Part shown: positions 184-7,307 of the stretch, piece by piece
How the letters are laid out: each line of letters starts with the position of its first letter
Numbering within the stretch: the stretch's first letter is position 1
Virus record (IMG/VR): IMGVR_UViG_3300011334_000360
Coordinates: 1-32,789 of that record
Strand: one strand, 5' to 3'
Source: a virus
Lineage: Duplodnaviria; Caudoviricetes
DNA length: 32,789 bases
Program-made: the position numbers and the translations under genes
The notes under the pieces: model-generated
What the model was told of the DNA's origin: nothing
The model's input: the letters and a program-made list of their open reading frames with translations, nothing else
The model's database searches: none

Positions 184-251
184 AACGATCGTTTAAATCA
201 CTCGCTTGCTTGTCTTGGCATCGTCCCAAACCTAACGAAAAAATTATTTGC

Positions 252-281
252 TTGACATGTTTTAGAAATGCTGTGTAAAAT
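252..281 (+). promoter_or_regulatory. sigma70-like promoter
   Basis: TTGACA (252-257), 18 nt, TAAAAT (276-281); A/T-rich upstream; TGCTGTGTAAA shared with the promoter at 20296-20323. Confidence 0.6.
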
Positions 282-383
282 CAGTACAAGAAAGAACGGA
301 TGATAATGCTTGTGTTGTGTGCATCTCATGCTTGGTGATTGCCTCGCGTGTATTGAGTAAATTCTTTGAAGTGGATGAATAGG

Positions 384-464
384 TTTCCCTGATGCTTTCC
401 CTGATGCTTTCCCTCAATACTTTCCCCTTGATTCTTCCCTTGATTCTTCCTCGCTTTCCCTCGC
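384..464. repeat. degenerate ~12-bp pyrimidine-rich tandem repeat
   Basis: TTTCCCTGATGC x2, TTTCCCTCAATAC, TTTCCCCTTGATTC, TTCCCTTGATTC, TTCCTCGC, TTTCCCTCGC. Confidence 0.85.
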
Positions 465-559
465 TGATTCTCTGCCGATCATGCCTCGAATTGATGCTTT
501 GCGCCTCGATTTCCCCGCTTGTCTTGTGAAATGCTGAAAAAATCTTGCGCAATAAAGCC

Positions 560-637
560 TTGATAATCAACGGTAAATGAGAAAAGTGAAAATAATTGTT
601 AAAATGTTGTAGACATTGCTCGCGAATCGGTTATCTT
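560..637 (+). promoter_or_regulatory. early promoter with A-rich UP-like region
   Basis: TAGACA (610-615), 16 nt, TATCTT (632-637); upstream A-rich tract resembles 7431-7486. Confidence 0.5.
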
Positions 638-688
638 TTGCCTGTCGCCGCGATTGGCGATCACAACAACTTGAAAATATACTTGAAT

Positions 689-1063
689 ATGAAACACACG
701 CTGAATACCTACGACATTGCAAATGCACTCCTCGCTGACACTAACGCAGCTTGGTCGCACGCTGGAGCTTACGCGCTCGCCGAATACCTGGAGGATTATG
801 AGGAGTCAACTGGCGAGGAGCTAGAGCTGGACGTTGTGGCTATCCGCTGCGACTTCTCAGAATACGCCTCATTGCAAGATTGGGCGAGCGAATACTTCGG
901 CGACGAGTCACAAGCGGCTGATGCACTAGGTCTTGATATTGATATGGACGGCGTGACAGTCGCGAATGACGAGTCAGAGATCGAGGAGGCAATCCGCGAA
1001 TATATCCAAGACCACGGTACACTGATCGAATTTGATGGCGGCATTATAACCTCCAGCTTCTGA
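689..1063 (+). CDS. acidic early phage protein (possible DNA-mimic/anti-restriction type)
   Basis: ATG 689 (MKHTLNTY...); very D/E-rich (YLEDYEESTGEELELDVVAIRCDFSEY); first gene after the promoters; function inferred. Confidence 0.75.
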   Translation: MKHTLNTYDIANALLADTNAAWSHAGAYALAEYLEDYEESTGEELELDVVAIRCDFSEYASLQDWASEYFGDESQAADALGLDIDMDGVTVANDESEIEEAIREYIQDHGTLIEFDGGIITSSF

Positions 1064-1114
1064 GCCGCTGACGAGTCCCAGGCAAGGGACGAAATCCCCG
1101 CAAGGGGATACGGC
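1064..1114 (+). ncRNA. type I hammerhead ribozyme (HH1)
   Basis: GCCG-CUGACGA-GUCCC(AGGCAA)GGGAC-GAAA-UCCCC(GCAA)GGGGA-UA-CGGC; complete catalytic core, three perfect stems, AUA cleavage triplet (cut after 1110). Confidence 0.93.
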
Positions 1115-1120
1115 ACAAGC

Positions 1121-1144
1121 CACAACACAACACAACACAACACA
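1121..1144 (+). repeat. (CACAA)n tandem repeat forming an unstructured leader
   Basis: CACAACACAACACAACACAACACA between HH1 and ATG 1147. Confidence 0.85.
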
Positions 1145-1146
1145 GA

Positions 1147-1389
1147 ATGAAAACTAAAACATCCGCAATCAAACACGCTCGCCAAATCGTATCGACACTG
1201 TCAGTCTTTGGAGATGGTTACTATTTCGCAACCTATGACGAAAAAATGAATGCATGGTGGCAACATGTCCCCAAATCATTCCACGCATCAACATTTGACC
1301 GCTCGCAAGCGTTGATCGACGCAGCCCGAGACTATCTCGATTTGCCGCCCGCGCAATATGACGGCGGGGCATGGACCGACTATGTTTAA
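1147..1389 (+). CDS. hypothetical early protein
   Basis: 80-aa ORF, ATG after A/C-rich leader, co-oriented with neighbours. Confidence 0.75.
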   Translation: MKTKTSAIKHARQIVSTLSVFGDGYYFATYDEKMNAWWQHVPKSFHASTFDRSQALIDAARDYLDLPPAQYDGGAWTDYV

Positions 1390-1429
1390 ACCCACTATCA
1401 CGGAAACCATACACAGCACAACACATACC

Positions 1430-1807
1430 ATGCAAACCATAGACCTACCTGAAATACTAAAGCTCCACAAATTGTGGCTAGAAAAACACCCCGACGGGAG
1501 ACGTGCCGACCTGCGCTGTGCCAACCTGAGCGGTGCCTACCTGAGCGGTGCCTACCTGAGCGGTGCCAACCTGAGTAGTGCCAACCTGAGCGAAGCACAT
1601 GGAATAAGATTAGCCGCGTGCCATTGGACAGCTCACGGAGAGAGGGGGAGACTGTTAAGTGCGGTTGAGATTGAAGGGGAGGTAACATTTTTTTGCGGAT
1701 GCTACCAAGGCAACGAGAGAAGCCTACGCGAGTATATCTCAATGCACAACCCTGAACATGCGAGCAGCCGCACCAAAGCCCTTGAGTTCCTGCTATCCTG
1801 CTTCTGA
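1430..1807 (+). CDS. pentapeptide-repeat protein
   Basis: ADLRC-ANLSG-AYLSG-AYLSG-ANLSS-ANLSE repeats after the typical ILKLHKLWL...GRRADL N-terminus; C-terminal FFCGC motif. Confidence 0.88.
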   Translation: MQTIDLPEILKLHKLWLEKHPDGRRADLRCANLSGAYLSGAYLSGANLSSANLSEAHGIRLAACHWTAHGERGRLLSAVEIEGEVTFFCGCYQGNERSLREYISMHNPEHASSRTKALEFLLSCF

Positions 1808-1851
1808 TTCCTCCCTACAACACAACACCCATGCACAGCACAACACATGCC

Positions 1852-1995
1852 ATGCAACCGACCTGCCAACTAATCCGCCGTCCTATCCGCCGTAACCAAT
1901 GGCGTAAATGGCTCACTGTCACCGCCGAAATCATCGGGGGAGTCGTCACGATTGCCCTACTTGTAACATTAACCCTCCTATGCTTAGCACTGTGA
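1852..1995 (+). CDS. small membrane protein (not in ORF track)
   Basis: MQPTCQLIRRPIRRNQWRKWLTVTAEIIGGVVTIALLVTLTLLCLAL; basic N-terminus plus one hydrophobic helix; stop overlaps next GTG (GTGA); ATG 1831 is an in-frame alternative start. Confidence 0.7.
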   Translation: MQPTCQLIRRPIRRNQWRKWLTVTAEIIGGVVTIALLVTLTLLCLAL

Positions 1996-2333
1996 CCACG
2001 TACGCAGCACTATCCCAGCGCATCCGCGCCGCCGTATCCACCGCTGATCTCGAAGCCTTAGAGAAGCGATGCGATAGGCACTATGCAGCAGGCACTATCA
2101 CGCCCCACGAGCTTTCCCGCTTGGATGAATTAACCATGGATCGCATAGCCAAGAACGGCGTCATAATTGACGAGCTTCACATCGCCCTCAGCGTATTAGA
2201 GCGGCGAGAAATTGATTTTGCCATGCGCGGCATGGTAGAGCACAGAAACTCCACGAGGCTGGCAACGCTGCCGATCAAGCGAGAAATCAACAAACTTGAG
2301 GGGAGGGAAATCTACCCCGAAGCAAGCCACTGA
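1992..2333 (+). CDS. hypothetical protein
   Basis: GTG 1992 coupled to the upstream stop; 3' part of track ORF 1908-2333; its stop codon is the UGA of the HH2 core. Confidence 0.7.
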   Translation: MTTYAALSQRIRAAVSTADLEALEKRCDRHYAAGTITPHELSRLDELTMDRIAKNGVIIDELHIALSVLERREIDFAMRGMVEHRNSTRLATLPIKREINKLEGREIYPEASH

Positions 2334-2373
2334 TGAGCCTAGGCAATAGGCGAAACCGCGCAAGCGGTCTGGC
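2326..2373 (+). ncRNA. type I hammerhead ribozyme (HH2)
   Basis: GCCA-CUGAUGA-GCCUA(GGCAA)UAGGC-GAAA-CCGC(GCAA)GCGG-UC-UGGC; canonical core, GUC triplet (cut after 2369). Confidence 0.95.
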
Positions 2374-2392
2374 ATGAGCCAAATCAAAATAT

Positions 2393-2635
2393 ATGATACT
2401 ATACCAAAAAACAGAAGATCCCCTCGTAATCGTAACCGACTCCAAAACAAAAGACGTGCAGACGAAAAAGCTAACTGGCACTTATTTTCGGATCATTCCC
2501 CCCGCAAATGATCGCGTAAATTGGGTGTTGACATGCTCAGAAATGCACGTTGACCGCTGGGCATCGGCTACAGACTCCACTATGATCATCTCCGAAAATC
2601 TACGCAATCAACTCGTAGCACTATTCCAATGTTAA
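2393..2635 (+). CDS. hypothetical protein
   Basis: 80-aa ORF just downstream of HH2, overlapping the next start. Confidence 0.7.
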   Translation: MILYQKTEDPLVIVTDSKTKDVQTKKLTGTYFRIIPPANDRVNWVLTCSEMHVDRWASATDSTMIISENLRNQLVALFQC

Positions 2636-2946
2636 TAGACAACAAAAGCGCGTTGATACAGTCCGTTGCTGATGTCGTCGGGGTAAAACCTGAAGCCATC
2701 ACTGGCAAGCGGAAACGGTATTCCGAGGCACTAGCTAGGCAGCTCGTTATGACACTCTGGAGTGAAGCACACTCGCTCCAAGACTCAGCCGAAATCGTAA
2801 ATCGAAACCATCACACAGCAGCATTTTATGCGCGGACAAAAACCTACGAGAAATTGCACTATTGCGAGAAATCAAAGGAGCAAATGCGCAAGATATTGCA
2901 AAGATATTCACAGATTATTCTTGAACAAAATGAAACAAGCCACTAA
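2629..2946 (+). CDS. DnaA C-terminal (domain IV)-like HTH DNA-binding protein
   Basis: VADVVGVKPEAITGKRKRYSEALARQLVMTL...SLQDSAEIVNRNHHTAAFYA follows the DnaA_C pattern. Confidence 0.75.
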   Translation: MLIDNKSALIQSVADVVGVKPEAITGKRKRYSEALARQLVMTLWSEAHSLQDSAEIVNRNHHTAAFYARTKTYEKLHYCEKSKEQMRKILQRYSQIILEQNETSH

Positions 2947-2994
2947 AACACTCTTGTGCAGGACATTACTGCACTATCACAACACCAAAATATA

Positions 2995-3573
2995 ATGAAC
3001 CTAGAACACAGCACACCTGAATTGTTTACTGCCCTAGCAAAAATGCAAGGAGAAGTAGAAAACGCCACAAAAGGCTCACTAAATCCACATTTCAAGTCGA
3101 AATACGCGGATCTAGCCGAGGTCTTGAACACCGTTCGCCCAGTATTGGCAGCGAATGGATTATCCGTGATCCAATCGCCCTCGTTTGACGGCGCGATCTG
3201 TCACGTCACCACCACTATCGCCCACAGCGGTGGTGGTTACATTTACGGCACTATGTCCTGCGTCCCTGCTAAAATGGACGGGCAGGGCGTAGGTGCTAGT
3301 ACTACATATTTGAGGCGGTATAGCTTAGCGGCCGTGTGCGGGGTAGCTCAGGAGGATGATGACGGGCAATCTGCCGCGCATAATCGCCCAGTAGTCTATC
3401 CGCTGATCTCCAGCGGTGAAGCTGCCAGAATTCGCGAGAACATCGAAGCACTTGCTATCGACGAACTCGCATTTCTGAAGCACTACGGGGTAACATCTGT
3501 GGCACAGCTAACCACTGACAAAATCGCCAGCATTGACAAAGCGTTCGCAATCAAAGCCAAAGCCAAGCCATGA
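2995..3573 (+). CDS. erf: ERF-family ssDNA annealing protein
   Basis: ALAKMQGEV..ATK...NPHFKSKYADL, QGVGASTTYLRRYSLAAVCGVAQEDDDG. Confidence 0.92.
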   Translation: MNLEHSTPELFTALAKMQGEVENATKGSLNPHFKSKYADLAEVLNTVRPVLAANGLSVIQSPSFDGAICHVTTTIAHSGGGYIYGTMSCVPAKMDGQGVGASTTYLRRYSLAAVCGVAQEDDDGQSAAHNRPVVYPLISSGEAARIRENIEALAIDELAFLKHYGVTSVAQLTTDKIASIDKAFAIKAKAKP

Positions 3574-4376
3574 AAAACGCAACTATTGAATACAATCTAG
3601 GTAGAGCTTACTACTCACGCTCCGCATCGCCGACAAACCTGTCAGGACCTGTCAGCAAGTCGCTACTATGGGATTTCAATCAATCCCCTTACAAGTGGAG
3701 ACACAGCGCCGGCAAGGAATCGACCCGTGCCATGGATCTAGGCACGCTGATTCACGCAGCGATCTTAGAACCCAACATCCCTCTGGATGTCATCGCCGCA
3801 GTATCGCCATTCTCTGATTTCCGCACAAAAGCAGCCCAGGAGTGGAGAGACGATGCGCGAGCAATGGGAAAAATGATTGCTACAGATGACGATATTCGCG
3901 CTGCTAGCGGGTGTGAAGCGGTCTTTTCTGAGGACTATGCGCAACGCTTTGCTGGTGGCTACAAATCCGAGGTGGCAGTTTTTGCCACTATCGGGGCAAC
4001 GGACATAAAAGGCATGATTGACCTTGTGCCTGACAATCTCGACCTGCTTGTGGATCTGAAAACGACTGCCAAAATCGGCAATCTGCGCAACATCACCAAC
4101 ACTATCATTGACCGAGGCTATCACTGGCAAGCAGCGTTATACTTGGATCTGTGGAACGCAGCAAGCGGTGAGAATCGCACTCGCTTTGTTATCTGTTTTA
4201 TCGAGGTAACAGCACCGTATGAATCGGCATGGGTGGAAGTATCACCCGAGTTGATCGAGGCGGGGCGAGTCGGCTACATGAACGCGCTTGCGAAATGGCA
4301 ATCCTGCGTAGCTGTAGGCGTATGGCCTCGACAACATGAGGGCATCACCACTATCGAGAAACCCGCTTACCTATAA
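3570..4376 (+). CDS. PD-(D/E)XK RecE/exonuclease VIII-like nuclease (DUF3799 type)
   Basis: SKSLL, AMDLGTLIHAAILEP, KGMIDL...VDLKTT, GYHWQAALY; adjacent to ERF with ATGA overlap. Confidence 0.9.
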   Translation: MKNATIEYNLGRAYYSRSASPTNLSGPVSKSLLWDFNQSPYKWRHSAGKESTRAMDLGTLIHAAILEPNIPLDVIAAVSPFSDFRTKAAQEWRDDARAMGKMIATDDDIRAASGCEAVFSEDYAQRFAGGYKSEVAVFATIGATDIKGMIDLVPDNLDLLVDLKTTAKIGNLRNITNTIIDRGYHWQAALYLDLWNAASGENRTRFVICFIEVTAPYESAWVEVSPELIEAGRVGYMNALAKWQSCVAVGVWPRQHEGITTIEKPAYL

Positions 4377-5616: not shown

Positions 5617-5763
5617 GTCTGCTATTGTTGAAAGTTGTCTCCATGACATGCGCAAGCTAGGCAATAAAGGACACATCTCATTTACCATGCGTAAAATGAG
5701 ATACGAACACGCTTAGGCGTTTTCAGCAGACCCCGTCAGCACCCACTGGCGGGGTTTTTGTTT
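5617..5763 (+). ncRNA. putative structured small RNA (sRNA-1) with three-way-junction motif
   Basis: GUCUGC/GCAGAC closing stem; core UAUUGU-UGAAAGU-UGUC(UCCAU)GACA-U-GC(GCAA)GC-UAG-GCAAUA; extra hairpin AUCUCAUUUAC/GUAAAAUGAGAU; no ORF; covaries with 7218-7262. Confidence 0.75.
5730..5763 (+). terminator. intrinsic terminator
   Basis: ACCCCGTCAG-CACCCA-CTGGCGGGGT followed by TTTTGTTT. Confidence 0.85.
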
Positions 5764-7150: not shown

Positions 7151-7307
7151 AAAAAATATCTCCCAAAGTGTGCATCGTTGAGAGGCATGGGAGATCTGCT
7201 GTGATTGGAGACCCGCACCCGATCTAGCTTTCGCGATGACATGGAGTCAACTTTCAATCGGGGCAGGAATCCCACCTACTACGCGCAATGCTGCGTTTCG
7301 CAAGTTC
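7151..7307 (-). ncRNA. putative structured small RNA (sRNA-2), second copy of the three-way-junction motif
   Basis: core CCCGAU-UGAAAGU-UGAC(UCCAU)GUCA-UC-GC(GAAA)GC-UAG-AUCGGG; extended CCUGC/GCGGG stem; ends in AUCUCCCA/UGGGAGAU hairpin plus AUUUUUU. Confidence 0.75.

Follow-up and report, generated by a model that had tools for sequence, protein, structure and literature searches.

What might two self-cleaving ribozymes be doing on one strand near the start of a phage genome, their predicted cut sites bracketing four genes? The stretch of DNA at issue, here called the window, is the whole 32,789-base contig of an uncultured, tailed dsDNA phage, and the first-pass annotation took the pair to excise a 1259-nt RNA, thereby segmenting or stabilising early mRNA independently of the host or else yielding a circular message. 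Cutting of early phage mRNA has its precedent in T7, where host RNase III cleaves at long stems (~2 turns) and leaves 5'-phosphate ends. The two would have in common a long early transcript cut between genes into shorter messages, but the would-be cut in the window is RNA-catalysed and would leave 5'-OH and cyclic phosphate ends, and in place of a T7-type long stem both of its sites fold as short three-way junctions; the window works like T7 processing without being a member of it.

The layout itself has been known since 2011. Perreault et al. (PMC3088659) described prophages in which several hammerheads flank genes, or short gene blocks, whose identity varies, with a pseudoknot in all three hammerhead types, proposed processing to operon- or gene-length mRNAs and demonstrated cleavage for three clusters, activity of such clusters being seen both in vitro and inside E. 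coli; a 2019 paper by Weinberg et al. (PMC6765202) repeats the processing proposal and regards the roles of bacterial ribozymes as largely elusive. With such clusters the window shares several hammerheads near short non-constant gene blocks in phage DNA: its two hammerheads are in a contig with terminase and capsid genes, relatives have up to four, and the identity of the flanked genes is not constant. In that respect the locus leaves the known picture unchanged.

Both sites have the type I core features, namely CUGANGA, GAAA, the A15.1-U16.1 pair and an NUH triplet, with three stems of 4, 5 and 5-6 pairs around the core, stems II and III being closed by loops and stem I open (Table 1). Of the 23 CUGANGA words on the two strands they alone match the descriptor, and 300 dinucleotide shuffles yielded no match at their quality and five single matches at the descriptor's loosest setting. 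Their Rfam scores are below the gathering thresholds (25 bits against 48.5 for Hammerhead_3 and 18.1 against 52 for HH9; families RF00008 and RF02275). At the level of sequence the two are confirmed as type I hammerheads, and what had been noted of them holds: the motifs are both on the + strand, with predicted cuts after 1110 and 2369 to either side of the four ORFs. No coreless cleavage half-sites were seen on reading the window's early spacers as printed. In public data, two runs from one study (share 0.06, their being RNA only guessed) gave contig pieces of relatives; coverage of the two ribozymes was slight and nothing joined 2369 to 1111, an outcome that counts neither for nor against a circle.

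Table 1. Features of the early region of the window and of related loci (positions are those of the window unless a locus is named)
Feature	Position	Strand	Details
Sigma-70-type promoter-like site	252..281	+	TTGACA-18-TAAAAT, 11/12; similar sites at matching place in relatives
Second promoter-like site	610..637	+	TAGACA-16-TATCTT, 9/12; hairpin next at ~644-661
First early ORF, 124 aa	689..1063	+	TGA stop abuts HH1 stem I
Type I hammerhead HH1	1064-1114	+	3' tail GCC (1119-1121); predicted cut 1110/1111 after triplet AUA; stem I GCCG 1064-1067 / CGGC 1111-1114; core CUGACGA 1068-1074; stem II 1075-1079/1086-1090; GAAA 1091-1094; stem III 1095-1099/1104-1108
Predicted new 5' end	1111..1146	+	3-bp hairpin 1112-1121, then (CACAA)4 and CACAGA leader
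ORF, 80 aa	1147..1389	+	Homologs in 5 related early regions
ORF, 125 aa, pentapeptide-repeat protein	1430..1807	+	Pfam, PF00805
ORF, 47 aa, hydrophobic C-terminus	1852..1995	+	Commonest variable early gene of close relatives
ORF, 113 aa, GTG start	1992..2333	+	Fusion of 57- and 60-aa genes, separate in relatives; TGA stop is U4-G5-A6 of HH2 core
Type I hammerhead HH2	2326-2373	+	Tail GCCA (2378-2381); predicted cut 2369/2370 after triplet GUC; stem I GCCA 2326-2329 / UGGC 2370-2373; core CUGAUGA 2330-2336; stem II 2337-2341/2347-2351; GAAA 2352-2355; stem III 2356-2359/2364-2367
Conserved 80-aa ORF	2393..2635	+	Start 23 nt past HH2 cut
DnaA C-terminal-like helix-turn-helix (HTH) protein	2629..2946	+	PF08299
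Hairpin, 6 bp, 7-nt loop, then TATCA	2956..2974	+	Spacer before Erf; degenerate loop; T-loop hairpin there in sister phages
Erf-family ssDNA annealing protein	2995..3573	+	
Exonuclease VIII / PD-(D/E)XK nuclease	3570..4376	+	
Intrinsic-terminator-like site, 12 pairs	5728..5757	+	Terminator-like sites as a class at chance level in region
T-loop hairpins, loop UYCNAYC, stem 5-8 bp	L109:1965-2012, L124:3338-3385, L129:2377-2424 and 38 other distinct copies	sense	
Hairpins, 15-16 bp	L048:4410-4497, L153:1166-1251, L174:3736-3821		Examples

A scan of 49 ORFs against PHROGs gives the names terminase, major head protein, tail protein, endolysin, DnaC-like loader, RusA, Erf and exonuclease VIII. From the two promoter-like sites a series of small + strand genes runs on to the terminator-like hairpin, a layout that reads as an early operon whose transcript likely ends at that hairpin. 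The second promoter-like site scores at chance level when taken alone; two sites ~320-350 nt apart recur in many close relatives. Between the two, at 378-515, are five imperfect 12-24-nt pyrimidine-rich repeats of the TGATGCTTTCCC type, and in a long stretch with few ORFs the Rfam abiF RNA motif scores above gathering on the minus strand (7158-7194; 41.5 bits against 37), as it also does at L048:8915-8950. As to who the host may be, scans of genome contigs with the exonuclease and with the capsid found no relative; the nearest phage record, Phage C75C1 (capsid 54%), names no host, homologs of the capsid had uninformative names, a DNA search with HH1 against 50,697 phage records gave no match, and the searches made found no close cultured relative.

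The predicted fragment, 1111-2369, has four ORFs. The starts at 1147, 1852 and 1992 match those of homologs in relatives, and the ORF at 1430 has no homolog within the early-region set of relatives. (The 57- and 60-aa genes fused at 1992-2333 have a 105-aa gene between them in L101 and L183.) The fragment's 5' leader had been described as an unstructured (CACAA)n run; (CACAA)4 is indeed at 1121-1140, but 1112-1121 folds as a 3-bp hairpin (-4.1 kcal/mol). Positions 1111-1146 are without a Shine-Dalgarno-like purine run. Such A/C-rich leaders are also found ahead of ribozyme-free genes (1412, 1834), and most early genes are preceded by a similar one without a Shine-Dalgarno-like run.

Is the pair a unit? 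For an answer 184 loci were fetched by a ribozyme-pattern scan together with scans with three proteins, and 107 of them plus the window could be anchored, giving 70 distinct groups. The strict descriptor misses variants with a mismatched first stem II pair (L091, L146, L148 and one in L102), and counts use a looser pattern, in which only stem I and the core are fixed and stems II and III need not pair, and which yields 57 distinct ribozymes; L028, an opposite-orientation copy of the L035/L102 contig, was excluded. Among 21 distinct close relatives that reach the early promoter, type I hammerheads number none in one, one in six, two in eight, three in five and four in one. Immediately ahead of the 80-aa gene, the first of the HTH-Erf-exonuclease block, is a site that HH2 occupies in the window and that holds a ribozyme in 20 of the 21. 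It is the conserved site, and the first is one of several variable positions. The 34 consecutive pairs have cut-to-cut spacings of 265-2246 nt, the window's four-gene block is in none of the 28 relatives mapped, and 53 ribozyme junctions have 28 gene families or singletons upstream and 23 downstream. The hammerhead pair is not a conserved unit. The first-pass annotation had held that a single ribozyme at unrelated positions in relatives would refute its reading; single copies do occur, which goes part of the way to such a refutation, but they lie at the conserved second site. Elsewhere, two other phage contigs of 8027 nt each (L034 and L033) have 11 and 5 type I hammerheads within 8 kb, those of L033 with a GCAA-like tail unable to form the 5' hairpin of the window's family. 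In L091 (860 nt before the HTH gene) and in L146 and L148 (305 nt before it) the hammerhead variants have the first stem II pair (10.1-11.1) mismatched or altered.

These counts bear on the most striking version of the original proposal, that the pair releases the 1259-nt RNA and that this then becomes a working circular mRNA, either by ligating itself or with the help of an RtcB-type ligase of the host. Two cuts on one strand would yield termini (5'-OH and cyclic phosphate) of the kind joined by RtcB-type and plant tRNA ligases (PMC4344496, PMC5680766), and in 32 of the 34 consecutive pairs the junction would restore stem I pairing. The two exceptions are a pair in L180 and the window itself, whose junction sets A2329 against C1111, an A-C mismatch beside the scissile bond; that HH1 has both sides changed to G-C fits selection on pairing in cis. 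Further against a circle, the fragment's two ends are unpaired in the predicted fold, no long direct repeats flank it, six of the 21 close relatives have a single ribozyme and one has none, spacings vary with no conserved gene block, and no RNA ligase is named among 49 ORFs (PHROGs) or 23 ORFs (Pfam). Circular or spliced products of such clusters were looked for in 2011 and none came to light (PMC3088659). We therefore set aside paired excision with closure to a working circular message as very unlikely indeed; a host RtcB could still turn some molecules into minor circles (PMC4344496).

Retrozymes, which also have two same-strand hammerheads ~1 kb apart and release RNA with ligatable ends, are characterised by 300-400-bp LTRs, a primer-binding site, a polypurine tract, target-site duplications, non-coding content and the build-up of circular RNA (PMC5680766). 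The window differs in lacking long repeats and in its unconserved pair, and where a retrozyme has a non-coding centre it has four ORFs, of which three have homologs in relatives and one contains a Pfam domain. No LTR-like repeats of retrozyme length were found in 200-3000, the longest repeats there being a 45-nt pentapeptide unit and a 29-nt leader pair.

If the pair is not conserved, the structure is. Stems II and III, at five tested positions, are 98-100% paired in the 57 ribozymes against 43-94% when shuffled, and none of 2000 shuffles reached the observed level. A MAFFT alignment of 43 strict-descriptor members shows two-sided changes at 8 of 15 pairs (score 0.247 against 0.094), its rows having been chosen for pairing and sharing ancestry. 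Stem I is a less simple matter. Without the 3' tail it is in the predicted fold of 58 of 58 members; with it, a UGGC/GCCA hairpin beats native stem I in 45 of 58 (median 1.1 kcal/mol, the pseudoknot not counted), the two being -1.2 to +2.8 kcal/mol apart in all 58. In longer context, with the tail present and folding pseudoknot-free, stem I has a probability of 0.01-0.02 at both window sites. This modelled weakness is the main doubt about ribozyme activity: as the tail hairpin outcompetes stem I, an unmodelled loop II-tail pseudoknot must make up the difference. Loop II GGC and tail GCC are present in 57/57 ribozymes, with a flanking fourth pair often unpaired; being invariant, they lend the pseudoknot no covariation support, though as sequences they fit that of PMC3088659. 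A 5' hairpin is predicted on all 57 products. The success of the tail hairpin over stem I suggests, on the folding model, that after the cut the 3' product would fold on itself, favouring release over religation.

Where does translation of the upstream gene end? Its stop codon is written into the core UGA in 29 of 60 ribozymes, an observation newly added here; in 12 it directly adjoins stem I, in 16 it is found 8-44 nt upstream and in three it is downstream, which puts it at or before the core in 57 of 60. Downstream, the first usable ATG is 4-46 nt past the cut (median 21; 44 strict-set members), with eight values of 4-6 nt that are probably ATGs inside the tail and not true starts. Such intimacy of stop and core invites the thought that a ribosome, on terminating at the upstream stop, masks the core together with the 5' strand of stem I while the 3' strand is trapped in the tail hairpin, the cut then occurring mainly when the upstream gene is untranslated. 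The 29 stops in the core and the 12 next to stem I would suit such gating, as would the near balance of native stem I and tail hairpin in all 58 members and the keeping of GCC/GGC at four places in 57/57 (two of the four being in the search pattern). However, compact packing and the need for a stop on the 5' piece explain the overlap as well, the loop II pseudoknot needs the tail GCC anyway, and the 16 stops lying 8-44 nt upstream are out of place for it; we think translation gating unlikely.

The reading we prefer, and consider probable, is that the hammerheads cut a long early transcript into linear pieces with protected ends, and not into a circle. Of the original proposal the segmentation or stabilisation of early mRNA is thus what survives as the best reading here, one already proposed and tested in vitro in 2011 (PMC3088659), and the circle is what falls away. 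A transcript running from the promoter-like sites to ~5760 would be cut as it is made, after 1110 and after 2369, giving a first-gene piece, the 1259-nt four-gene piece and a ~3.4-kb piece with the HTH, Erf and exonuclease genes. Upstream pieces would keep their stop codon and end in stems II and III with a 2',3'-cyclic phosphate. Downstream pieces would begin with a 5'-OH, their first 11-12 nt folding as the small hairpin that favours release and disfavours religation, and have an A/C-rich leader 20-45 nt ahead of the start codon. The conserved job would be at the second site, at the border of the variable genes and the conserved recombination module, with the 1259-nt piece a by-product of the genome's current gene mosaic. 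RiboJ-type insulators offer a likeness, since in these too a self-cleaving ribozyme fixes the 5' end of the downstream gene with a terminal hairpin, and in E. coli such a 5' ribozyme raised transcript abundance ~twofold; they are engineered and one per transcript (PMC6206723).

Would a 5'-OH end lengthen the life of a message or shorten it? RNase E can cleave 5'-hydroxylated RNA fast by direct entry (PMC2948425) and cleavage by glmS leads to decay (PMC6765202); the consequence of such an end would depend on the host. The glmS case is also a recommendation for the converse of protection, in which cleavage makes the message of the downstream genes less stable or damps their expression, or in which the motifs ride along almost neutrally, some of them inactive. 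The number per genome is labile, and the first stem II pair is non-canonical or wobble in four of 57 ribozymes (T-T in two, T-C in one, G-T in one). Yet neither core nor triplet is damaged, the second site has been retained as described above, and the genes behind it are recombination functions that the phage would presumably need early; down-tuning or passenger status strikes us as improbable.

The presence of Erf and exonuclease genes directly downstream brings to mind another use altogether, with the ribozymes persisting mainly as dispersed DNA repeats by which these enzymes shuffle early-gene cassettes. The same ribozyme-encoded Ser-His-stop terminates upstream genes that are unrelated to one another, and variants of stem II are combined now with one, now with another variant of stem III. 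If ribozymes were crossover sites, neighbour swaps should cluster at them; gene order is highly mosaic, yet among pairs sharing a downstream gene swaps are seen in 194/226 at ribozyme junctions against 294/363 elsewhere (pairs being non-independent and the 80-aa gene dominating), and among those sharing an upstream gene in 38/70 against 283/352 (again non-independent). As swaps are not clearly commoner at ribozyme junctions, a recombination hot-spot role is not supported, and the stem covariation points to selection on RNA structure, superfluous for a mere DNA repeat; cassette shuffling as the main reason for their persistence is very improbable. One gene of the window, that for the HTH protein, ends Glu-Thr-Ser-His-stop (GAAACAAGCCAC) like the hammerhead-fused genes; what follows it is a plain hairpin and no ribozyme (gene end and hairpin are both within 2932-2974).

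It is in the sister phages that linear segmentation acquires a broader setting. In a tree of the exonucleases of 43 loci, with 3.6 kb examined per locus, a single clade (support 97/98) takes in all 19 loci that have type I hammerheads, and T-loop hairpins are absent from their 3.6 kb. Among the remaining 24, T-loop hairpins are present in 19 and a type II hammerhead in 12. As a point against linear segmentation, five of the 43 have neither type I hammerhead nor T-loop hairpin in the 3.6 kb, and three of these five are also without type II. The hammerhead/T-loop split is one evolutionary event, not many. (L004, outside the tree as it is without the exonuclease, has both a hammerhead and a T-loop hairpin.) Defined as G-UYCNAYC-C on a stem of at least five pairs, T-loop hairpins were counted in 69 distinct loci: the early 3.5 kb has 46, the rest of the sense strand 11 and the opposite strand none, and each of the 41 distinct early copies has a stop codon 6-14 nt ahead of it and an ATG 8-45 nt behind it. 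Compensatory changes are seen in their stems, albeit in copies chosen for pairing; an H-type pseudoknot reading of the element was not preferred, as the hairpin stem covaries. Three gene families have a hammerhead behind them in the window's clade and a T-loop hairpin in sisters (L101 vs L121, L102 vs L120, L095 vs L124). One T-loop subfamily (L109:1965-2012, L121:4680-4727) begins CCAGGCAAGG and ends UUGCCA, ends that echo hammerhead loop II and tail (window 1075-1090, 1119-1121), and a hairpin before Erf in L112 begins CUGAUGAG.

More distant relatives (L110, L120, L037, L045, L055, L056, L057, L065, L127, L129, L132, L135, L138) have single type II hammerheads, 0.9-3.1 kb before the HTH gene and with an A/C-rich leader and start codon next. 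Other early gaps of 12 related loci hold yet another element, a hairpin of 15-16 bp interrupted by a 2x2 internal loop, which may be an RNase III-type site. Across 12 loci that lack type I hammerheads nothing in Rfam reached gathering level, and a scan of six loci by E-value gave only abiF and three chance-level rows while missing hammerheads visible to the descriptor, which makes blanks in Rfam weak; neither the T-loop hairpin nor the 15-16-bp hairpin (L048) matched an Rfam that is blind also to some descriptor hammerheads. A search of the main text of mostly open-access papers turned up no account of phage early operons in which T-loop hairpins and hammerheads alternate; the covered text of PMC5737381 has nothing on T-loop elements, and its supplement or that of PMC3088659 could list them.

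Compared with the 2011 clusters, then, the window's hammerheads are of type I, belong to an uncultured tailed-phage group and have an activity that is predicted only; they have a conserved site before a recombination module, often with a stop inside the core, and their sister lineages use T-loop hairpins or type II hammerheads instead. That the hammerheads mark one clade, and that the sisters have T-loop hairpins past the stops behind three of the same gene families, is newly added here. The common position of hammerheads and hairpins suggests, as far as sequence can, a common job, whether punctuating the message or protecting it. One might go further and suppose that a single lineage swapped an uncatalogued tRNA T-arm-like hairpin, read by host enzymes, for type I hammerheads in the same slots, with the stop codon in the core letting terminating ribosomes gate the cut; put together in this way the proposal is a doubtful one.

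The value of the locus is in the comparative set and not in the 1259-nt fragment. It would be a much greater surprise if a phage were to have a working circular mRNA, but the evidence here points away from that. What the set provides are near-identical phages with one to four ribozymes, one conserved site before the recombination genes and T-loop hairpins or type II hammerheads in the sisters, among which swaps of one element for another could tell which common job is done: cutting, 3' protection or 5' insulation, with whatever effect each may have on mRNA lifetime or translation. Should the exchange of hairpin for hammerhead prove true, Nature would have left in this group a swap experiment on what bacterial and phage ribozymes are for.
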